Origin: a virus
Taxonomy: Duplodnaviria > Caudoviricetes
Direction: 5' to 3' (one strand)
Virus record (IMG/VR): IMGVR_UViG_3300035208_005676
Coordinates: 1-64,000 of that record
Length of the DNA stretch: 64,000 bases
The position numbers were made by a program, and so were the translations under genes. The notes beneath the pieces were generated by a model. The model had not been told where the DNA came from. It was given only the letters and a program-made list of their open reading frames with translations, and ran no database searches. This document shows positions 40,650 through 64,000 of this stretch, piece after piece; within the stretch, counting starts at the first letter, position 1; each line of letters begins with the position of its first letter.

Positions 40650-40873
40650 AGATCCTCTACAACGGTCGCGAGGTCGCCACCCTGGAGGACGGCCAGCTCA
40701 CCACGGACTATCCTCAGCTGCACACACTCTGGGCCAACCCGCCGCCTCTGCTCGGTGGAGGTGCGGTCAACGGAGTCAACTACTCGCAGCAGCAGCAGCC
40801 GAAGACGCCGGCCGAGAAAGAGCAGGCTTTCCTGGAGGCTCTGCGTCTGGTAGGATTCAGGGTTGAGGAGTAG
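40646..40873 (+). CDS. small hypothetical protein
   Basis: GGAGGG RBS, GTGA overlap. Confidence 0.65.
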   Translation: MKILYNGREVATLEDGQLTTDYPQLHTLWANPPPLLGGGAVNGVNYSQQQQPKTPAEKEQAFLEALRLVGFRVEE

Positions 40874-40877
40874 GAAG

Positions 40878-43460
40878 ATGGCCAGCTATCCGATCGGCAC
40901 AATCCGGCAGTGGCATGGTGGTCTTTGCCGGAAGGGAGCCGATGGAAAGTGGCACCCGATCAAGCCCGAGGACGTCACCCACGAAGATCTGGATGCGACC
41001 CCGCTGCGGGGCTCTGCCGAGGAGGCTCGCCGTAAGGAGCTGTCCCCGGAAGCCTGGGCGGAGAAGCTGGCCGGCGGCAAGCTCCACAAGGGCAAGAAGG
41101 CCAACATCGGCGAGATCCGCAACTGGGCGGACGGGCCGCACAAGAAGGTCGAGGCCGGGAAGTGGACCGAGGTCGAGGGCGGGCCGAAGGACAAGGAAGC
41201 GCGCAAGCTGCGGGAGCGGGAGCAGCTGGGGCAGACCAGCATGTTTGGGGACGATATGCCAGCGCGAGGGCTTGGTGCTCGCGACGGCGACGCGCCCGCT
41301 CCAGCCAAGAAGGAAGAGCCCGCGTCCGTTCCGGCGGCCCCGGAGCCCGAAGGGAAGCGCTGGGCCAAGGAGATCGAGCGGCAGGGTGTGGCTGAGCGGT
41401 CCGCGCCGGGGGGAACGGAAGCCGCGCAGCGCGACAAGCGGCTGCAACATCAGCTGCAGGCCGAGGTCCACGGGTGGAATCAGCCCTGGCAGCGGAATAT
41501 GACGCTGGCCAACGGGAACGTGACTTACGAGATCAAACGGCTGAAGGCAATGGCTCCATCCCTCCGCAAGGAGGGCACCGTCAAGATGATCGAATCGGCC
41601 ATCGCTGCGTATGAGGCCGACGAGACGATCGGACACTTCCACGCGGACAAGCTGCGCGGGGAGCTGTCGGCGGCCTGGGAGTCTGGCCGGAGGAAGGCGG
41701 CCCCGCCCGACGCGAAAGAGCAGAAGGCGATGGCCGAGTTCACCGCGCAAGCGGAGCGGGCCAAGCAGGGTGCGGTGGTCGACGGCTTCCAGGATCGGCT
41801 CCGGACCCTGTCCGCTGCGAAGCATGGGGGGCATGCCGAGCTGGTTGCGCTGCGCGACGAGCTGCGGGCCGCTGGTCGCGAGGGGACGATCCCTCACGCG
41901 GACGCCGATCGGATGATGGACGCGGCAACCGACCTGATCGTTGCGCGTCCGTCGTTGGTTCACGGCCTGGGCGGGGAGCACGAGATCCCCTCCTTTGCGG
42001 GGTCGCGTCGGGCGGACGGGTGGCGGCGAGAGTTTGGCAGCGGGGACGCGTGGTACCACGAATGGAATGACGTGCAGCAGGTTCCCGGACATGGCGGGGC
42101 CGAGGATCGGTTGGAGCGGCACACGATCCATGTCGACCCGGACGGGGGGGCATACCTCGTAGCGGTTCACCGGGCGTTTCAGCCGAGCAGCTCGGAAAGT
42201 CCGCTGGAGCTGCACGAGCACGGGCGCGCCCGCGTCGGGACACCGGAAGAGGTGTTGCCTGCGATCGAAAGGTTGCATTCCAAGCTGGGGGAGCAGAATC
42301 AGGAGCGACTGGCACAATCCAAGCCTTTGTGGGAGCAGTGGCGCAAGTTTCGGTATGACCATGCCGAGGGGGATCCGTACTTTCGCGACAAGGAGACGCA
42401 GTTTAGCGGGCGTGTCCTGAATAAGGACTATGCCGGGGCGCAGAAGCTCCTGGAGGAGTACCAGGCTGGGGTCAAGGGTGCCGCTCGACGGGGCAAGCAG
42501 CGGACCAAGCCGGTGCGGAAGAGCCAGATCCTCGTCAAGTCCAGCATCATCCAGGCTCACGTCGGCCCTCCCCTGGTCCTGATGGCCTCCCCGGAGAATC
42601 CCCAGGTGCGGCGGTGGCAGCGGCCCAACCCAGGCGAGTCGCGGGAAGCCTTCATGGGCCGCTTCCGCGCCAACCGCGACAAAACTCTTTCTCACTGGCG
42701 CTCCCTGGCCGCGCAGGTACCTGGCCAGCGCGACCTGGAGACGGGCGAGACGATCTCCGCAGCGCGCATCGAGGACGCGCGCAAGCGGGTGGCCGAGCTG
42801 GAGGGGGAGATCGCTAACGAGCGCAAGGGCGCGGCCAAGAAGGAAGCGAAGCGTGAGGCGGCCTCCGCCGGGCTCCAGGCGGGCCTCTTCGACGCTCCCG
42901 ACGCGGCACCCAAGCATCAAGGTGGCCTGTTCGGGGACGATGTTACGCCTGCGCGGGGGCTTGATACCCGCGACGGGGATGAGCCTGCGCCAGTCAAGCG
43001 AGGGCGGAACGTCGCTTATGACGCGTGGAACGATCAGGTGAAGCTGGCCGCGCAGCCGGCCCTGACCGCAATCATCAAGAAGCTGACCGCCGCGCACCCC
43101 GGCCTGTCCGCGACGGTAGAGCACGTCCCGGGCGGGGTCGACCCCGACGAGCTGCAGGCGAAGGTCAAGACCCCCTGGGGGACTGAGCTGACCGTGCGCT
43201 ACCGGCAGAAGATGGCGGGCATGGGCACCCTGGAGATCAAGCCGGCCGCCGACGACAACCGCGCCTTGCGCGCCGTGCGGGATGCGAACGTGCCGCTGTC
43301 GATCCCGATTGCCGCGGCAACACCCCGCTCCGCGATGGAGCAGCTGGTTGGGGCGGGAAAGCACCTGGCCGCCCTGGGAAGGTCCCTGGCGCTCCAGGCG
43401 CAGGGGTCGACCCCTTCCAAGGAGACGGCCTCCACAACGGGCAGCCTGGGCCTCTTCTGA
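40878..43460 (+). CDS. large hypothetical protein carrying cluster repeat modules
   Basis: Two PIGTIRQW-type modules, LHKG and LVKS junctions, internal FGDD..ARGL..RDGD.PAP duplication. Confidence 0.75.
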   Translation: MASYPIGTIRQWHGGLCRKGADGKWHPIKPEDVTHEDLDATPLRGSAEEARRKELSPEAWAEKLAGGKLHKGKKANIGEIRNWADGPHKKVEAGKWTEVEGGPKDKEARKLREREQLGQTSMFGDDMPARGLGARDGDAPAPAKKEEPASVPAAPEPEGKRWAKEIERQGVAERSAPGGTEAAQRDKRLQHQLQAEVHGWNQPWQRNMTLANGNVTYEIKRLKAMAPSLRKEGTVKMIESAIAAYEADETIGHFHADKLRGELSAAWESGRRKAAPPDAKEQKAMAEFTAQAERAKQGAVVDGFQDRLRTLSAAKHGGHAELVALRDELRAAGREGTIPHADADRMMDAATDLIVARPSLVHGLGGEHEIPSFAGSRRADGWRREFGSGDAWYHEWNDVQQVPGHGGAEDRLERHTIHVDPDGGAYLVAVHRAFQPSSSESPLELHEHGRARVGTPEEVLPAIERLHSKLGEQNQERLAQSKPLWEQWRKFRYDHAEGDPYFRDKETQFSGRVLNKDYAGAQKLLEEYQAGVKGAARRGKQRTKPVRKSQILVKSSIIQAHVGPPLVLMASPENPQVRRWQRPNPGESREAFMGRFRANRDKTLSHWRSLAAQVPGQRDLETGETISAARIEDARKRVAELEGEIANERKGAAKKEAKREAASAGLQAGLFDAPDAAPKHQGGLFGDDVTPARGLDTRDGDEPAPVKRGRNVAYDAWNDQVKLAAQPALTAIIKKLTAAHPGLSATVEHVPGGVDPDELQAKVKTPWGTELTVRYRQKMAGMGTLEIKPAADDNRALRAVRDANVPLSIPIAAATPRSAMEQLVGAGKHLAALGRSLALQAQGSTPSKETASTTGSLGLF

Positions 43461-43694: not shown

Positions 43695-46600
43695 GCGACC
43701 CGAACATCATCATCCACCCTCCGGAGGTTGCCAGTGATCCCGACATCCTGGTCAAGGGACGCAAGCCAGCTCCAACCGTTCCCTGGCCCCCTTCGGGACC
43801 CGGTTGGGAGTCGATTCCAAAGCCCCGCGGCGGACGTCACGGCATGCGTCGTCGTAAGTCTACCGGGTCCGGGTATGAGTACAGCTACATCCCAGTTGTT
43901 CCTCCTCCCCAGCTCAGCATGTTCGACAATGTTCGTCCAGCTGCCCCGGATAAGAAGAAGCGTGCCCCGCGGGCCGCTACCCCCACAGCTGGTCAGACGG
44001 ACCTCTTCGGCACCTTTGACGTGCCCGAGGCGGCCAAGCCGGCAGTGGAGCGTGCCAAGTCCACCTCCGAGAAGGTGGCCACAGCAGCGATAGCGGCCAA
44101 GCGTCCGCGCAAGGGGGCGATCTTCAACCCGGCTCCCGTGCTCAGGGTGGGCAAGGAGAAGATCCCCGCGCTCTCTGCCGGGGTGGATCGGCCTGCCCCT
44201 CTGCCCCAGCTCTCCCTGCTCGACTTCGCTCCGGAAGCGCAGCCGATCATCTACCCGGCCGAACAGGTGAAAGCGGACGTGGTGAAGGCGTCCCAAGGTC
44301 GCCCGCGCAAAACACGGTCGAGGAAGCTACTCGTCGACCCGATCGGCGCGCTGACCGACCCGGCCGACACAACCCCGGTAGCCTCGCCCGCCGAGCTGGA
44401 GTTGCCTCCGGCTGCAGTAGAGGACGTCGAGGCGCTGTTGCGCCAGGAGAAGGACGGGAAGCCCCTTCCTGACCGGGAAGTGCCCGCGGAGCCAATCCTG
44501 CCCGAGGGGAAGCGGCTGGCGGGCGAGATTGAAGCGCAAGCGGCCAAGGAGCGGGGGGAAGAGGCCGAGATCTTGCATTCCCAGTTTGGCGGGCTGCGGG
44601 GGATCGTCGAGCACGGGATCAAGGCGACGTTCGGGGGGCGTGCCGGGTGGGGGCCGGTGGCCCGGAAGACGGCCAACCAGCACGCGAAGCAAGTTCTCGC
44701 CACACTGAAAAAGGAGCAGCGGGAGGCTACTCCAGAAGAGCTAGAGATTCTGAAGGGTTACAGCGGGCATGGCGGCGTCGGGGGTGATTCCTTCGGCAAT
44801 CTCAATGAATATTTTACTCCCACCGGAATTGCTGGAGCGATCTGGGGGGCGCTGGCGGCGAGCAAGTGCGCCACGCGAGACACGCCGATCCTGGAGCCGA
44901 GCGTGGGCACCGGGGCGTTTCTGGACACCTGTCCGTTCCGGTTCGCGCAGACGGTGGGGGTGGAGCTGGACCCGACGAGCGCGGGGGTGGCCCGAGCCCT
45001 ATTCGAGCCACGCGGCGAGGGGTTTACCAAGATCGAAACGGACTGCTTTGAGCGGTTCGCGGTGCGGGATGCCCGCTACTGGCCGATCATCGTCGGCAAC
45101 CCGCCGTTCGGTGCACGGGGCAAGACTGCAGCGGCGGACCCCGAGAAGCGGGGCATGCCGGCGGAGTCGTACTTCCTGGACACCGCGGTCGACAAGCTGC
45201 TCCCGGGCGGCGTGGTGGCGATGGTGCTACCAACGCAGGTGATCTCCGGGGACGGGGAGGATCGCAAGGCATTCCGGGAGCGGCTGCTCAAGAAGGCTGA
45301 GTTGATCGGGGCCTGGCGCTTGCCTTCCGGGGCGTTTGCGCAGTCGGGTACCTCGATTGCGACAGACGTGGTTTTCCTGCGCAAGTGGCAGGGAGCGGAG
45401 GTGCTAGCCGCGCTCACGACCGACGAGCTGGCCGAGCGGGGCTACACGATTGATCCCGAGGTGCTCGCGGGCAACTACTTCCGGAAGCACCCGGGCCAGG
45501 TGTTCGGGGTCGAGCAGGAGGACGCGGAGTTCAACGGGCAGATCAAGGTCGAGGGCAAGCTGACCGCAGAGGATCTGCACCGGCTGGCCGAAGAGGCGGG
45601 CAACGCGCTGCGCGCCGGCCGGATCGCGAATAACCCGCTCACCCGCCCCATGATGGACGTAACCGAGGGGCTGAGCGCGGCACGACGGGTTGAAGTGGAG
45701 GCGGCGCGGACGGGCCCGAGCCCCTACCGGTGGGAAGAGGGGACGCTGCGCGACTTCGAGGGGATCCGCCATATCTACCGGAAAACACCGGACGGTTTCG
45801 CTTGGCGGCGGATCGACGCGGCCGAGGAGCTGGAGAACCTCTCCCCGACCGACAAGGAGCAGGTGACCGCCGCTGGGAAGATCGGCGAGGGGCTCAGTGA
45901 GCTGCAGGCGGCGATCCGCACGGGGGATGATCCCGCGAAGACTGCGGCGCTGCGGGAGCAGCTTCGGCGGGACGTGGTGACCTGGCGGGACCGGTATGGG
46001 GTGCCGGCCGGGGCCAAGAAGCTGCTGGGGAAGTTGGCCAACCAGACGGCCGCGGCGATGTTCGCCGGGTCAATCAAGCCGGACGGGGAGGTCTGCGACC
46101 TGTTGCTCCGGCAGGTGGACCCGCAGCGAGTGGCGCTGCCTGAGGGGCAGACCGAGACAGACTCGCCCGAGGTGGCGGTCGATATGGCGGCCCGGGAGGG
46201 GGACGGGATCATCAACCTGACGTCCGCGGCGCAGAACCTCGGCGGGGTGGACATCAAGCCGATCGAGGCGGTGCTGTTGGCCTCGCCGGCCTACTTCCTC
46301 GACGAGGAAGGCAACTGGCTGACGAAAGAGCGGTTCCTGTCGGGGTACGTCTACGAGCGGCGCAGCAGCTTGGCCAACATCGCGGCTGTCCTGGAGCAGG
46401 CCGCGGGGGACGCGAAGCGGGCCGCCGATCTCCTGCAGGGGATGGAGGGGCGGCAGGCGGCGGGGAAGCTGGGGCTGGCGCGCAACTTCGAGAAGGTTCT
46501 GGCGAAGATCAAGGAAGGCGTGGCCGAGCTGGACAAGGTCCGGAATGCGACCCCCTTCGAGGAGATCCGCATCACCCTGCGGGATGGCTGGGTGCCGATC

Positions 46601-57367: not shown

Positions 57368-57368
57368 G

Positions 57369-57403
57369 CCGCGACGCCAGCTCGGGGGCTTGGTACCCGA
57401 GAC
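57369..57403 (+). promoter_or_regulatory. conserved 35-bp hairpin element, copy 1
   Basis: CCGCGACGCCAGCTCGGGGGCTTGGTACCCGAGAC; 34/35 identical to 57921-57955. Confidence 0.75.
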
Positions 57404-57919: not shown

Positions 57920-57920
57920 T

Positions 57921-57955
57921 CCGCGGCGCCAGCTCGGGGGCTTGGTACCCGAGAC
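57921..57955 (+). promoter_or_regulatory. conserved 35-bp hairpin element, copy 2
   Basis: see copy 1. Confidence 0.75.
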
Positions 57956-59741: not shown

Positions 59742-60218
59742 ATGGGATGGATCGAAGCACACTGGCCCCTTTTCGTGGTCGCGGCCTCGCTGGCCATTCC
59801 TCTGATTCTGGCGGGGATGATGCTCGTCCGCGTGACCGGGCACGGCAACGCGACGAGCACCGGCCGGCAGAGCATCGGGGAGCAGCACATTGCCCTGCAG
59901 AACGGACGGCAGGAATGCCCGCCGGTGGTCTACACCACGATGGGCAGCCTGGCAGCGGCTGTTCAAGAGCTGCAGCGGCAGGTGGCCGAGGGCTTCCGTG
60001 AGGTGCGGGTTGACCAGAAAGAGACGCGGATGCAGCAGGCGCAGATCGCGGCCGATCTTCGGGTGGCCTCCGAGGGCTTCCGGGTGGCCGCCGAGGGCTT
60101 CCACGCGTTCTCCCGGCTGATGGAGCGATTCGACATCGAGGAAGAGACGATCCGCGTGCTCGACCGGGAGGCAGACGCGCTCGGCCGGGCGGGTGAGCGG
60201 GAGAGGGCGCACGGGTGA
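59742..60218 (+). CDS. membrane-anchored coiled-coil protein
   Basis: GGGAGG RBS; N-terminal TM. Confidence 0.6.
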   Translation: MGWIEAHWPLFVVAASLAIPLILAGMMLVRVTGHGNATSTGRQSIGEQHIALQNGRQECPPVVYTTMGSLAAAVQELQRQVAEGFREVRVDQKETRMQQAQIAADLRVASEGFRVAAEGFHAFSRLMERFDIEEETIRVLDREADALGRAGERERAHG

Positions 60219-61984
60219 TCCCGATCCGCCCGAATCGGGAGCAGCTGCGGCGGCACGTCGAGCGAGCTTCAATTACCCCCGAGGTGGCCAAGGCGATCCG
60301 GGAGATCGTCCAGCTGCACCATGAAGCTCTTGTCGAGGCGGTCTGCGGCGGGAGCATGCTCCCCGAGGCCGTGACGGCTCAGATCCGGGCTGCAGGGATC
60401 CCGCGCTGGGCCGGTCCTTCTGTCGTCGAGTCGGGGGTCGACCTGGGGATCCTCACCGCGGGCCTAAAAGACCCCTTCCAGGACGAAGTTGACCCTGACG
60501 AGCTGGCCCGGCGGATCCTGCACCAGCGGGAGTTGCCGCTGTCCTACGCAGAGGCCGTGGCTGAGCAGGAGGCCAAAGAGAAAGCGGCCATTTACTGCCG
60601 CGGCCTCGGAAACACCGTCGACAAGGAGACGCAATCGTTGATCGTCGAGACGACGGTCGAGAACCGCGCGCAGCTGGTTGACGCGATCCGCGACGAGACG
60701 GCCGAAGCAATCCACTGGCGCGAAACGCGTTTCGCAATGAAGAGTCGGCTCGGTCGGGCAACTGGCGAGTGGCACCGGGATCTGCACCGGATCGCCGAGA
60801 CGGAGCTGCACAATGCGATGCAGGCCGGGCGCGGGGCGGCAATCGAGCGCGACCACGGGGAGGGCGCGCAGGTAGCGAAGCGACCCAATCCGTCTGCCTG
60901 TCCTGCGTGTTTGAGCATGTACCTGGATGGTGACGGCAACCCGCGGATCTTCCGGCTGTCAGAGATCAAGAGCGCGAGCAACGCCCGGGATCCCCAGACG
61001 GGCAAGCCGCGAAAGCGCGCGGACTGGGTTCCCGCCTTGGAGGCGCTACACCCCCACTGTTTCCTGCCCGGGGCAGTTGTCCAGGGCCGGATTCAGCTGG
61101 CGACCCGGGCGCTGTACCACGGGGAAGCCGTTGAAATACTTACTGCTCGTGGGCACAAGCTCACCGTCACGCCGAATCACCCCGTACCGACCGCGGACGG
61201 CCGCTGGCTCCCGGCGGGAAAGGTCGCGCAGGGCGATGATCTGCTCTGCTACCTTGGCGGGCAGGAAGGGGATGGTGCGGCCCGAGTCGCGCCTCGTCCG
61301 GACCCCCGGCACGAACAGCAGAACCCAGCCCGTATCGAGGAGGTATTTGACGCGTTTGCGAAAGGCGGTCGGTGTGCGCGATTGCATGCCTCCCCGATGG
61401 ACTTCCACGGCGATGCGATCGGCCTGGAGGGCGACGTCGATGTTGTATGGCCCGCAAGCGTGCTGTTGCGAGACGGCCTCTCCCCGGTCACGGAGTGCGG
61501 TAGCGATCTCGTCTTCCCCGAAGCCGACGTTGCGGCCGTAGCCGGTGGTCTGTCGCTCAGTTGCGCGGCGGGCTCGCAGCTCGGGAGACTCGGTTTGTCC
61601 TCGGCGGCTGGCCCAGGCGCTACCGAGCTGGCGCTCGACAGCAGTCCGATCCATGCGCAGGTGCTCCCACTTGATGTACTCCTGCTCGGACTGGCTTCGG
61701 AGCTGGACACCTGCGTCGAGGAGTTTGGCCTGCAGGGTGTTCCTTGCGACGCCGGCTTCGCCGGCAAGCTGCTTGATCGATTCCCCGGAGCGGTAGCGGC
61801 GGACAAAGTCGTTCAGGTTCGGAAGTTCAATTTTTCTGGTCATGTGTACGATCTCCAGTCGGAAACTGGATGGATCGTAGCAGACGGGGTTGTAACAAGC
61901 AACTGCCGCTGCCAGCTGATCTACGTTCCCGAGGGCTGGGGCTTCGACGAAGACGGCCGGCTGGTTCCCCCGAGGCGCAGGTGA
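60215..61984 (+). CDS. MuF/SPP1 gp7-like head morphogenesis protein with intein
   Basis: RIAETELHNA, ACPAC, and HPH|intein|CRC reconstituting the HPxCRC motif. Confidence 0.88.
   Translation: MIPIRPNREQLRRHVERASITPEVAKAIREIVQLHHEALVEAVCGGSMLPEAVTAQIRAAGIPRWAGPSVVESGVDLGILTAGLKDPFQDEVDPDELARRILHQRELPLSYAEAVAEQEAKEKAAIYCRGLGNTVDKETQSLIVETTVENRAQLVDAIRDETAEAIHWRETRFAMKSRLGRATGEWHRDLHRIAETELHNAMQAGRGAAIERDHGEGAQVAKRPNPSACPACLSMYLDGDGNPRIFRLSEIKSASNARDPQTGKPRKRADWVPALEALHPHCFLPGAVVQGRIQLATRALYHGEAVEILTARGHKLTVTPNHPVPTADGRWLPAGKVAQGDDLLCYLGGQEGDGAARVAPRPDPRHEQQNPARIEEVFDAFAKGGRCARLHASPMDFHGDAIGLEGDVDVVWPASVLLRDGLSPVTECGSDLVFPEADVAAVAGGLSLSCAAGSQLGRLGLSSAAGPGATELALDSSPIHAQVLPLDVLLLGLASELDTCVEEFGLQGVPCDAGFAGKLLDRFPGAVAADKVVQVRKFNFSGHVYDLQSETGWIVADGVVTSNCRCQLIYVPEGWGFDEDGRLVPPRRR
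60720..60735. repeat. 16-bp palindrome copy 9
   Basis: exact match. Confidence 0.95.
61046..61843 (-). CDS. antisense HTH + Vsr/DUF559-like endonuclease nested in the intein
   Basis: GGAGA SD before ATG; YRSGESIKQLAGEAGVARNTL (HTH); E.EI...QHACGPYNIDVA....IAVEVH...R..YL...GWVLLFV. Confidence 0.8.
   Translation of the reverse strand: MTRKIELPNLNDFVRRYRSGESIKQLAGEAGVARNTLQAKLLDAGVQLRSQSEQEYIKWEHLRMDRTAVERQLGSAWASRRGQTESPELRARRATERQTTGYGRNVGFGEDEIATALRDRGEAVSQQHACGPYNIDVALQADRIAVEVHRGGMQSRTPTAFRKRVKYLLDTGWVLLFVPGVRTRRDSGRTIPFLPAKVAEQIIALRDLSRREPAAVRGRYGVIRRDGELVPTSSKYFNGFPVVQRPGRQLNPALDNCPGQETVGV
61058..61903 (+). mobile_element. 282-aa intein (Hint) with no recognisable sense-strand endonuclease
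   Basis: CFLPGAVV (block A), LTVTPNHP (block B), GHVYDLQS (block F), VVTSN|C (block G). Confidence 0.9.
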
Positions 61985-62207: not shown

Positions 62208-62402
62208 GTCGCGGATCCTCCGCGCAGGTGCAGCTTCGCTGCGCTCATGCCGCGGGTTTCGGCCCCCGCGTCGGCGTTTCGACTTTCCCCCGCTGGTTCC
62301 AGCCGCCACGGAAAAATACCCTCCGCGCAGGGGTTGTCGGCTCAGGCTGCGCGTCGCGGAAAACCACCCTCCGCGCTGGGGTTGCAGACGGTCAGGCCGG
62401 TG
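62208..62402 (-). CRISPR. trailer of four variant repeats with short spacers
   Basis: Variant repeats at about 62208-62237, 62249-62283, 62305-62340 and 62353-62388; 6-bp stem kept in all. Confidence 0.7.
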
Positions 62403-62803
62403 GTCGCGGATTCGTTCCCTCCGCGCAGGTGTTGCCGGCGGCCGCAGGTGCAGACGGCGTCCGCCAACCCCAGGGTCGCGGATTTGTTCCCTCCGCGCAG
62501 GTGTTGCCGGAGTTCGGTCCCGAGCCTGTGAGCACATTCTGATGGCGTCGCGGATTTGTTCCCTCCGCGCAGGTGTTGCCGGACGCCAGCTGATCGAGCT
62601 TGCTTATGAAGGAGAGTAGTCGCGGATTTGTTCCCTCCGCGCAGGTGTTGCCGGCACTCTCATTTTCAACCATCTCCTCTTGCTTGCGAGCCAGTCGCGG
62701 ATTTGTTCCCTCCGCGCAGGTGTTGCCGGTCGATCAGCTGGCGTGCAGCGCGCCGGTCCTTCGGGAGGTCGCGGATTTGTTCCCTCCGCGCAGGTGTTGC
62801 CGG
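62403..62803 (-). CRISPR. CRISPR array: 6 x 36-nt repeats, 5 spacers of 36-39 nt
   Basis: Repeat (minus strand) CCGGCAACACCTGCGCGGAGGGAACAAATCCGCGAC at 62403 (1 mismatch), 62475, 62547, 62619, 62694, 62768. Confidence 0.97.
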
Positions 62804-62809
62804 GGCACG

Positions 62810-64000
62810 TCACGGAATACCAGGAACGGCAAGGCTTTCTGCTTCGCTTTGCGAGCGGGTCTTTTTGAGTCGACTCCACTTCGATCCGCTTTTCTGCAAC
62901 TCCTTGGAATTATTGGCCGTCGCTTTCCCGTTCGGGGTTGCCACACCTTCCCGCTCGCTTCCATAGTGGATCAGGAGTACCCGAGCCGCGTTCTCGTCTT
63001 GATCCCAGCAGGCTCCGCACCCCGGACAGACGTGGTCGACGGACGCCGCGGCGTCCCATTTTTCAGTGTGGCCGCAGAGGTGGCATTCTTGCGTGGTATA
63101 GGCCGGATCCAGTTTGACGACGGTCTTCCCGCGCATCGTGAACGCGTTGATCAGGCAGAGTCGCAGCTCGGAAGGAGCGGCGATCCGCTGTTGAAGACGC
63201 GCTGCGGGCCTTTCCACCTCTTCGGCCTCGGGAGCGATGTGCCGCTGCATCTTGCTTAGATCGAAATCCTCCAGGATCAGCGTGTTGTACTGCTCGGCCA
63301 ACCGAGCCGCGGCGACACGGTAAACTTCCCGGCGACGGCGCAGAACCTTGTCTCGCAGGTTTTCCTGCCACTGCCAGAGGTGGTAGTCCTGTTTTTCCCA
63401 GGTGTCGAGCAGAGTAAAGCCCTCGTCATCGTCGGGAAAGCGGGCCTCTCGCCAAGCTCGAATCAGGATGACGAGGTGCCCCGTAGCTTTCCAGAGGTGG
63501 ACGTAAGCAATCCCCAGATCGGCCATCCACGCAGGAATCTTGTGGACTGAGATCCACGCGATGAGGCTCTTCTGCACCTCGTTGAAGTTCTTTTTGCGGA
63601 TGCTCTGAAGGTCACTGACCTTCTGCAACCGCTCTTGAATCGGAATGTCTACTCCGATTTCTCCCAGATCCCCGTCCGATCCGACGAAGAAGCCTCCCCG
63701 GAGCGATGCCGGCTTGCCGCGCCAGCCCAGGTCGACCGCGAGGAGCCGATTTCCGGGTACGACGATCTGTTCGGGGGTCTCTAGGGAAAGGCAGAGAGAC
63801 CAGCTCGGTTTGCCCGCCAACCGGGACACCTTGACTTTGGCCCACTTGACTCGGCTGTTCGGGGGCACCGGCCGATGCAAGGTCACCGGCCAGGTGGCCC
63901 AGATCGGCTTACCTGTTGAATCCGAGGAGACGCGCAGGTGAGCGACTGTTCGCTGTTCCGGAGAGCGGCGGCGATCCCAGGCCGACGCGGGGACGGGGTC
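62810..64000 (-). CDS. compact type V effector, Cas12m (V-U1)/TnpB-related; 5' end outside window
   Basis: Frame open to the edge; WPVTLHRPVP..VKW, AVDLGWR (RuvC-I), HLWQWQ..RDK..RRR..YR, LEDFDL (RuvC-II), CHLC..CPGC, DQDENAA (RuvC-III); abuts the array. Confidence 0.85.
   Translation of the reverse strand, partial: DPVPASAWDRRRSPEQRTVAHLRVSSDSTGKPIWATWPVTLHRPVPPNSRVKWAKVKVSRLAGKPSWSLCLSLETPEQIVVPGNRLLAVDLGWRGKPASLRGGFFVGSDGDLGEIGVDIPIQERLQKVSDLQSIRKKNFNEVQKSLIAWISVHKIPAWMADLGIAYVHLWKATGHLVILIRAWREARFPDDDEGFTLLDTWEKQDYHLWQWQENLRDKVLRRRREVYRVAAARLAEQYNTLILEDFDLSKMQRHIAPEAEEVERPAARLQQRIAAPSELRLCLINAFTMRGKTVVKLDPAYTTQECHLCGHTEKWDAAASVDHVCPGCGACWDQDENAARVLLIHYGSEREGVATPNGKATANNSKELQKSGSKWSRLKKTRSQSEAESLAVPGIP

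Follow-up and report, generated by a model that had tools for sequence, protein, structure and literature searches.

Introduction

Can the diverged repeats at the far end of a phage CRISPR array still serve as guide units, or are they remnants of an ageing locus? The question is raised by a 64,000-nt stretch of viral DNA (the window), which corresponds to the first 64 kb of the IMG/VR record IMGVR_UViG_3300035208_005676, a virus of 103,540 bp rated complete by CheckV. Close to its end, the window contains a type V-M array next to a gene for the effector Cas12m, and at 62208-62402 the regular part of this array is followed by four divergent repeat units with unusually short spacers. The original prediction took these units for a second, regulatory guide set, which would allow one effector to cut with long guides and to repress with short ones. 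Comparison with the arrays of Cas12m relatives moderately favours a different explanation, in which the four units are aged and compacted units of the phage array that could still be loaded by Cas12m.

Anatomy of the array

The regular part of the array consists of repeats starting at 62768, 62694, 62619, 62547 and 62475, which are identical, and at 62403, which carries one mismatch; the spacers between them measure 38, 39, 36, 36 and 36 nt. These repeats score 30.6-31.5 bits against a covariance model derived from 30 array repeats of the Cas12m family. Four divergent units with nominal spacers of 14, 12, 21 and 11 nt adjoin the last regular repeat without a break (Table 1), and both the positions and the lengths first described for them hold. 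The variant units are spaced at 50, 48, 56 and 41 nt, and the last value becomes 47 nt if the deletion in the loop is allowed for. All four are detected by the covariance model on the array strand and in phase, the weakest with an expectation value (E) of 0.53 over the 134 kb searched, which equals about 8e-4 for this 200-nt stretch.

Two features of the regular spacers were also seen. The first (62730-62767) and the third (62583-62618) spacer overlap by 15 nt on opposite strands and therefore share one 59-bp target. The far end of the fifth spacer on the minus strand (62439-62458) resembles the first ~12 nt of the repeat, like the units at 62388 and 62237, and the spacer as a whole may consist of a short spacer joined to a truncated piece of a repeat.

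Cas12m and the reading direction of the array

The cas12m gene extends beyond the window, which contains the part encoding the C-terminal 396 amino acids (aa) at 62810..64000 on the minus strand. In phmmer searches against PDB chains, the encoded protein P0001 matches 23vw with E 2.8e-76 over residues 6-545, and further Cas12m structures with E 5e-28 (Cas12m2, 8hio) and 5.6e-22 (8pm4); judged by these similarities, it is a type V-M effector homologous to Cas12m over its full length. A Pfam match to PF07282, the Cas12f1-like TNB zinc-ribbon domain, has E 5.7e-13. In an alignment, the RuvC residues D291, E445 and D534 or D536 are conserved in 28 relatives, giving a triad of the D-E-D type, and the zinc-ribbon cysteines C510 and C526 are present across the same 28 proteins, with C507 and C529 in at least 90%. 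Tested Cas12m proteins with a D-E-D, H-D-D or N-D-D triad all bind DNA and none cuts it (PMC11013384). By analogy with these orthologues, P0001 is predicted to bind DNA next to a protospacer adjacent motif (PAM) without cleavage. Since the tested orthologues bind without cutting, long guides would have no cutting mode, and the proposed division of labour, in which the effector would cut with long guides and repress with short ones, is not supported. A search for Cas1 (PF01867) over all 103.5 kb of the phage genome gave no match; Cas2 and Cas4 were outside its scope.

For comparison, a set of 80 metagenome loci, 7 genome loci and several contigs was assembled, in which the relatives are 31-47% identical. 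The locus search used a protein alignment of 8 sequences, as an alignment of 28 sequences was too diverse, and the loci were scanned with the covariance model and a custom position-and-pair scoring scheme. Among the handle-like units in 87 loci of relatives, 618 share the strand of cas12m and 5 have the opposite orientation, and the arrays, on the same strand as cas12m, begin just downstream of the gene. The first repeat in the phage likewise begins 6 nt past the cas12m stop codon. This strand bias, and the start of the arrays just past the gene, indicate that the array is read on the minus strand and that the variant units form its cas-distal end. A promoter scan of the minus strand at the variant units revealed no promoter-like site. 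The RNA fold of the whole region has a z-score of 0.97, which is uninformative because the DNA is GC-rich.

Conservation of the handle fold in the variant units

In the sense of the CRISPR RNA (crRNA), the stem of the repeat reads CGCGGA/TCCGCG, and it was correctly described as kept in all four variant units. It is intact in unit 1, which also keeps the G:A pair and the final C. Unit 2 contains one G-U pair in the stem, so that pairing is possible only on the minus strand, and it ends in GGC instead of GAC. In unit 3, the stem carries the compensated change CGCGGG/CCCGCG and is accompanied by the family-typical GCC/GGC stem I of the pseudoknot. The stem of unit 4 is intact around a loop of 3 nt, and the 3' arm of pseudoknot stem I was lost with the shortening of the loop; because of this loss, unit 4 is unlikely to be a competent handle. 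In units 1 and 2, stem I has 3 bp (positions 9-11 with 20-22) and the loop is T-rich. The regular repeat has only 2 bp in stem I, and units 1 and 2 are nearer to the family consensus. By these measures of predicted structure, units 1-3 appear no worse as handles than the regular repeat, with unit 4 excepted.

All 18 stem pairs are kept in units 1-3. The chance that all six pairs of a unit survive an equal number of random substitutions is 0.04, 0.055 and 0.018 for units 1, 2 and 3, respectively, and units 1 and 2 are counted as one lineage because they have derived changes in common. Thus, the conservation of the stem is real and beyond chance, with a joint support of about 1e-3 from only four units.

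A compact class of array units among Cas12m relatives

In about 44 arrays of the relatives, the spacing between the 3' ends of units is bimodal. A main mode lies at 72-74 nt and a second one at 47-49 nt with its peak at 48 nt; they are separated by a trough at 55-63 nt, and few values fall below 46 nt. The 50- and 48-nt spacings of the window sit on the second mode. Short units occur in 15 of 42 non-redundant arrays. Handles at short spacings differ from the modal repeat of their array at 5.6-6.0 positions in 26 nt, compared with 1.0-1.3 for the others. In the cas-proximal fifth of the arrays, 8 short spacings stand against 70 regular ones, and the short ones are spread over the remainder.

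The pseudoknot is kept throughout the family. Over 30 arrays, 88.5% of the cells are paired, a value reached by none of 500 shuffles, and both helices of the published Cas12m2 crRNA covary, with 68 both-side changes versus 20 +/- 4 in shuffled data. Short units follow the same rule: in 58 short-period units from the two loci L012 and L015, 90.4% of the cells pair, and 96 cells are changed on both sides versus 24 +/- 6 in shuffles. G-U pairs are frequent in these units, which fits RNA structure on the array strand. The locus L012 (6755-8089) contains an intact cas12m open reading frame (ORF) followed by 26 handles with a period of ~48 nt and two double-length gaps; the handles are ~35% diverged and the pseudoknot is kept, and two samples contain the 11.7-kb locus in identical form. 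In L015 (6849-11834), ~5 kb of units spaced at 39-64 nt are interrupted by a 420-aa ORF on the minus strand, and a regular array with 68-76-nt spacing is found at the far end.

The length of the compact units may be related to the size of the guide RNA. In Cas12m2, pairing with the target involves 17 nt of the guide, and disorder is seen at repeat positions -36 to -30 (PMC10442227), while the crRNA of GoCas12m is ~50 nt long, derives ~30 nt from the repeat and reads 18 bp (PMC11013384). By analogy, the ~48-nt period would be close to one mature Cas12m crRNA with a ~30-nt handle and a guide of 17-18 nt. If the first ~6-7 nt of each repeat are removed, the RNA left between one ordered handle and the next measures 21, 19, 28 and 18 nt in the variant units, long enough for a full heteroduplex. 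Given that pairing involves only 17-18 nt and that the repeat begins with ~7 disordered nt, these 18-28-nt intervals may already be full-length guides, and the short guides need not be truncated ones, as had been supposed.

Two further loci show likeness among spacers. L070 (3657-4136) contains three 37-nt spacers with a common core of ~20 nt, and in L038 (3931-4289) a 21-nt spacer is repeated with small changes. These patterns point to possible growth by segmental duplication rather than by fresh acquisition.

Array polarity and the related phage G001

Several observations bear on the age of the two array ends. A 2.4-kb contig from another assembly encodes an identical Cas12m, and its first spacer (L004 2392-2430) is a 39-nt variant of the 36-nt third spacer of the window. 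Because this contig opens with a variant of the third spacer, the cas-proximal end must turn over. The two spacer versions differ at four positions with mostly wobble-like spacing, which suggests independent capture from allelic targets or spacer drift. The related arrays L048 and L050 come from different samples; additional units are found in L050 near the cas end and in mid-array, and the distal part is unchanged, including its short units. In the window, the number of differences from the regular repeat with increasing distance from cas12m is 1, 10, 9 and ~13, followed by a deletion. On this pattern of divergence, the variant units are placed at the old end of the array.

Searches for relatives of the portal protein yielded four viral contigs, G001-G004, with a portal identity of 62% in three of them (including G001) and of 47% in the fourth. 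G001 (IMGVR_UViG_3300037067_017476, 62.6 kb) comes from JGI sample 3300037067, which also yielded the contig with the identical Cas12m. It contains its own cas12m and an array (L106, G001:C1:56445-57233) with a different repeat and 10 regular units, which ends distally in two variant handles with 12-nt spacers. Thus, the tail architecture is common to both phages and the guides are not conserved: of the conservation in related loci that the original prediction had proposed to look for, the form is found and the guide sequences are unrelated.

Searches for targets

None of the spacers matches the 103.5-kb phage genome outside the array, except for one 14-nt match with 1 mismatch inside a gene, which is read as chance, and the short spacers have no match in the region upstream of cas12m. 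The proposed targets in the phage genome, including the cas promoter, were therefore not recovered. A blastn search of INPHARED with the array gave no match, and nothing meaningful was found either for cross-targeting between this phage and G001-G004 or for 612 guides from the relatives against this genome. By exact words, the second and fourth regular spacers have no match in IMG/VR, and the 21-nt spacer 3 of the variant part has no exact match there. A 20-mer from the merged regular spacers 1 and 3 matches one AT-rich IMG/VR contig; the flanks do not match, and the site was rejected as a protospacer. Short spacer 2 with the next 6 nt was likewise discarded, as neither of its 2 IMG/VR matches extends.

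Short spacer 1 with the next 4 nt has 16 IMG/VR matches in ~7 sequence families without a common 5' flank. One of them extends to 22 nt exact and 26/28 overall, covering short spacer 1 and the first 8 nt of variant unit 1. The site lies in the provirus IMGVR_UViG_2634166395_000002 (45226-45253, minus strand; G005:C1; L134 1501-1528), which is unrelated to this phage, inside an ORF of 287 aa, and its 5' flank ends in CCA. Allowing for ~7 independent 18-mer matches, the chance of such an extension is ~0.01-0.1, and part of it is probably repeat-derived, since the motif is common to variant units 1 and 2. This borderline match may be a lead and was not counted as a target. Taken together, the searches yield no convincing target for any short unit.

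How the variant units may have arisen and what they may do

In the preferred explanation, the variant units would be the oldest, cas-distal end of an array transcribed on the minus strand together with cas12m. A regular 72-74-nt unit would lose those parts that are discarded on maturation, from the far end of its spacer into the opening nucleotides of the repeat that follows, and the remainder would have approximately the size of a mature crRNA, with a ~30-nt pseudoknot handle and a guide of roughly 17-20 nt. Selection would keep the fold of the handle and halt deletions at the functional minimum, and the sharp lower edge at ~46 nt may exist because selection stops deletion at this point. Units 1-3 would probably still be processed and loaded by Cas12m, while unit 4, with half of its pseudoknot gone, is probably dead. 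Loaded units would act like any Cas12m guide, by binding PAM-adjacent DNA and thus blocking transcription or replication.

Several points weigh against this explanation. The short tail is not an obligatory part of the system, as only 7 of 30 complete arrays (those with the distal end inside the contig) terminate in short units. In the window's variant units, the first seven nucleotides are no more diverged than the rest, so that their proposed shift into the guide is not visible there; in the L012 and L015 units, they are visibly freer than the rest. The custom detector rewards base pairs, so that the measured pairing is inflated, and L012 and L015 contribute more than half of the short units; the ~48-nt periodicity of L012 is a check that leans less on this detector. 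Beyond the handle pattern, the distal tails of the window and G001 have no homology and their short spacers are unrelated, and the lack of a convincing target counts on the same side. Finally, short inverted repeats can persist through template-switch repair of quasi-palindromes without any selection at the RNA level.

The last point is part of a simpler explanation, neutral decay of the trailer, in which the units are dead remnants shaped by random deletions, the RNA is unused, and the stems survive owing to a short divergence time or to template-switch correction. It is in line with the position of the units at the old end, with a divergence that grows with distance from cas12m, with the last unit having lost its loop, with the missing targets, and with a tail that is neither conserved in G001 nor present in most complete arrays. 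Decay would not readily account for substitutions that avoid or compensate the stem in units 1-3, for a G-U pair that is strand-specific, or for family short units that keep pseudoknot stems I and II with many both-side changes; nor would it be expected to produce a length distribution that breaks off abruptly at ~46 nt instead of smearing out, or a locus such as L012, in which an intact effector is accompanied by almost only short units. Decay is accordingly considered unlikely, albeit a serious contender. A function without guiding is less probable still: the units could act as a 3' cap, shielding or setting the end of the last real crRNA, or as a sponge for free Cas12m, and the spacer content would be irrelevant in both cases. 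Such a role would agree with a conserved fold next to unconserved spacers and with tails of at least two short units at the distal ends of several arrays, and lone-repeat RNA decoys have been described in type V-A and type I systems (PMC10651486). Yet most complete arrays lack such a tail, short units are also found in mid-array, and the sharp minimum of the spacing is better explained by a required guide length.

The regulatory guide set of the original prediction, in which weak or partial matches to host or phage promoters would tune expression in the manner of CreA/CreR, scaRNA or crlRNA, has some appeal for an effector that silences by binding. According to a preprint (bioRxiv 10.64898/2026.10.26.761838, citing Wu 2022), the first 11 guide nucleotides of Cas12m tolerate no mismatch, and spacers of 12-14 nt would cover this segment. 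Handle-like units outside the arrays, both in this phage and before cas12m in relatives (see below), also indicate that handles may be used beyond defence arrays. What stands of this proposal is a fold kept on the transcribed strand, a recurrent class of units and, probably, binding by the effector. Its specifically regulatory part did not find support: the units are contiguous with the array and the promoter scan revealed no promoter of their own, the short spacers are unmatched in the phage genome including the cas12m upstream region and wholly different in G001, and 12-nt matches in hosts are indistinguishable from chance. A dedicated regulatory set is therefore regarded as improbable.

Handles outside arrays

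The covariance model detects eight lone Cas12m-type handles elsewhere in the genome (Table 1). Like the structural genes, all of them are encoded on the plus strand. The two handles inside the 865-aa ORF differ by a compensated stem pair, and the first of them has 26 of 29 handle positions in common with the repeat of the G001 array. Three lone handles fall precisely into the gap that separates a stop codon from the ribosome-binding site of the following late gene, among them the handle at genome position 76204, which follows a virion protein gene and precedes GGAGGA and a start codon. Near the portal genes of the related phages, neither lone handles nor matches to the guide-like sequences after this phage's lone handles were found, and G001 has no handle outside its array at E <= 0.01. 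A side feature is the head-morphogenesis (MuF-like) gene at 60215-61984, which reads through an intein-like insert at 61046-61903; the opposite strand contains a long ORF.

Table 1. Positions of the array parts, the effector gene and the lone handles (window numbering unless genome positions are given; for four handles, the positions in L097 are added in brackets)
Feature	Position	Strand	Remarks
cas12m, type V-M effector	62810 to genome position 64603	-	597 aa, protein P0001
Regular array part	62403..62803	-	six 36-nt repeats, five spacers
Short spacer 1, 14 nt	62389..62402	-	
Variant unit 1	62353..62388	-	10/36 differ from regular repeat; 28.0 bits
Short spacer 2, 12 nt	62341..62352	-	
Variant unit 2	62305..62340	-	9 differences; 17.3 bits
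Spacer 3, 21 nt	62284..62304	-	
Variant unit 3, 35 nt	62249..62283	-	about 13 differences; 13.9 bits
Short spacer 4, 11 nt	62238..62248	-	
Variant unit 4, 30 nt	62208..62237	-	loop shortened from 9 to 3 nt; 21.8 bits
Lone handle	41250..41285	+	35.2 bits; in frame inside 865-aa ORF 40863-43460
Lone handle	42939..42974	+	35.6 bits; in frame inside 865-aa ORF 40863-43460
Lone handle	57368..57403	+	36.3 bits; between portal stop codon and ribosome-binding site of next gene
Lone handle	57920..57955	+	32.1 bits; between two 162-aa paralogues, directly before AGGAGG and start codon
Lone handle	genome 64625-64660 (L097 725-760)	+	21.9 bits; 22 nt from cas12m start, opposite strand
Lone handle	genome 66205-66237 (L097 2305-2337)	+	16.1 bits; upstream of the 66340 handle, before head-protease gene
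Lone handle	genome 66340-66375 (L097 2440-2475)	+	37.7 bits; before head-protease gene
Lone handle	genome 76204-76238 (L097 12304-12338)	+	23.9 bits; nearly identical to array repeat

In 7 of 68 relatives, a variant handle on the same strand ends 21-54 nt before the cas12m start codon (L017 605-640, L034 4934-4968, L042 1822-1857, L045 3419-3454, L054 377-413, L070 1853-1888 and L082 4933-4968). This frequency exceeds the background of 0.023 matches per kb further upstream about 40-fold, and the leader handles place the ribosome-binding site in the guide position. They may serve autoregulation, by analogy with the lone repeat units that are found upstream of cas12a in type V-A loci (PMC10120712).

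The lone handles suggest a plausible role of Cas12m at the RNA level and raise the question whether a CRISPR effector acts on the mRNAs of its own genome; RNA decoys of the Racr type are the rival reading. In a far-reaching version, Cas12m would be a general RNA-handle-binding regulator besides its role in defence: the ~48-nt units would be a selected guide form that evolves by duplication and mutation and not by Cas1-Cas2 acquisition, and the lone handles ahead of late structural genes, within one ORF and, in relatives, in the cas12m leader would let Cas12m process or repress the phage's own mRNAs and its own synthesis. This broad proposal is speculative and thought rather unlikely to be correct.

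Significance and comparison with known systems

Cas12m is under development as a compact programmable DNA binder for CRISPR interference, base editing and epigenome editing. If a second, crRNA-sized type of unit occurs in natural arrays, with handles that can vary provided the pseudoknot persists, this would define a minimal natural guide cassette together with the handle sequences that are tolerated, and it would offer a way to pack many guides into little DNA. It would also hint at how arrays evolve without an adaptation module.

The closest known system is type V-M itself, represented by MmCas12m/Cas12m2, GoCas12m and MsCas12m (PMC10442227, PMC11013384). The phage locus has in common with it an effector homologous over the full length, a 36-nt repeat with a pseudoknot handle and a GAC end, an array just downstream of the effector gene on the same strand, and regular spacers of ~36-39 nt, with no cas1 found in the phage genome; it is unlike these systems in that its array closes with four variant handles, whose nominal spacers measure 11-21 nt. 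Phage-borne Cas12m has been described before, as MvCas12m in a myxophage (bioRxiv 10.64898/2026.09.14.751636) and in PMC12607003. No paper on compact units, bimodal unit lengths or covarying variant handles in V-M arrays was found in the literature covered, to which Wu 2022 does not belong.

Atypical repeats with short or partial guides are also characteristic of the regulatory RNAs CreA/CreR, scaRNA, tracr-L and crlRNA (PMC10120712, bioRxiv 10.1101/2024.12.27.630466). The variant units of the window are unlike them, as they are located inside the main array, have no promoter target in the searches made and carry spacers that are not conserved. The leader handles in seven of the 68 Cas12m relatives resemble the lone repeats upstream of cas12a more closely, whereas the handle nearest to cas12m in this phage is on the opposite strand. 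Racr and other viral solitary repeat units (PMC10651486) resemble the lone handles outside the array, one of which matches the repeat of a related phage at 26 of 29 positions. This comparison concerns the dispersed handles and not the tail units, and it differs in that the phage encodes a matching effector and that three of its lone handles adjoin the ribosome-binding sites of late genes.

Homing guides of type V-K and I-F3 CRISPR-associated transposons consist of an atypical repeat and a short spacer. The order of an atypical repeat followed by a short spacer at the end of the array is similar, but a homing guide was rejected as an explanation: the effector is Cas12m and not Cas12k, and the identified neighbours are the phage structural genes for portal, head protease and virion protein, with no search made for the transposition genes tnsB, tnsC and tniQ. 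The trailer ends of CRISPR arrays commonly carry degenerate terminal repeats as a sign of array ageing, and the variant units resemble these in being far from the end at which the arrays of near-identical phages differ and in a divergence that rises away from cas12m. They differ from degenerate trailer repeats in having kept the stem and much of the pseudoknot through silent, wobble or compensatory changes, and in a discrete unit length of ~48 nt that is common to unrelated Cas12m arrays.

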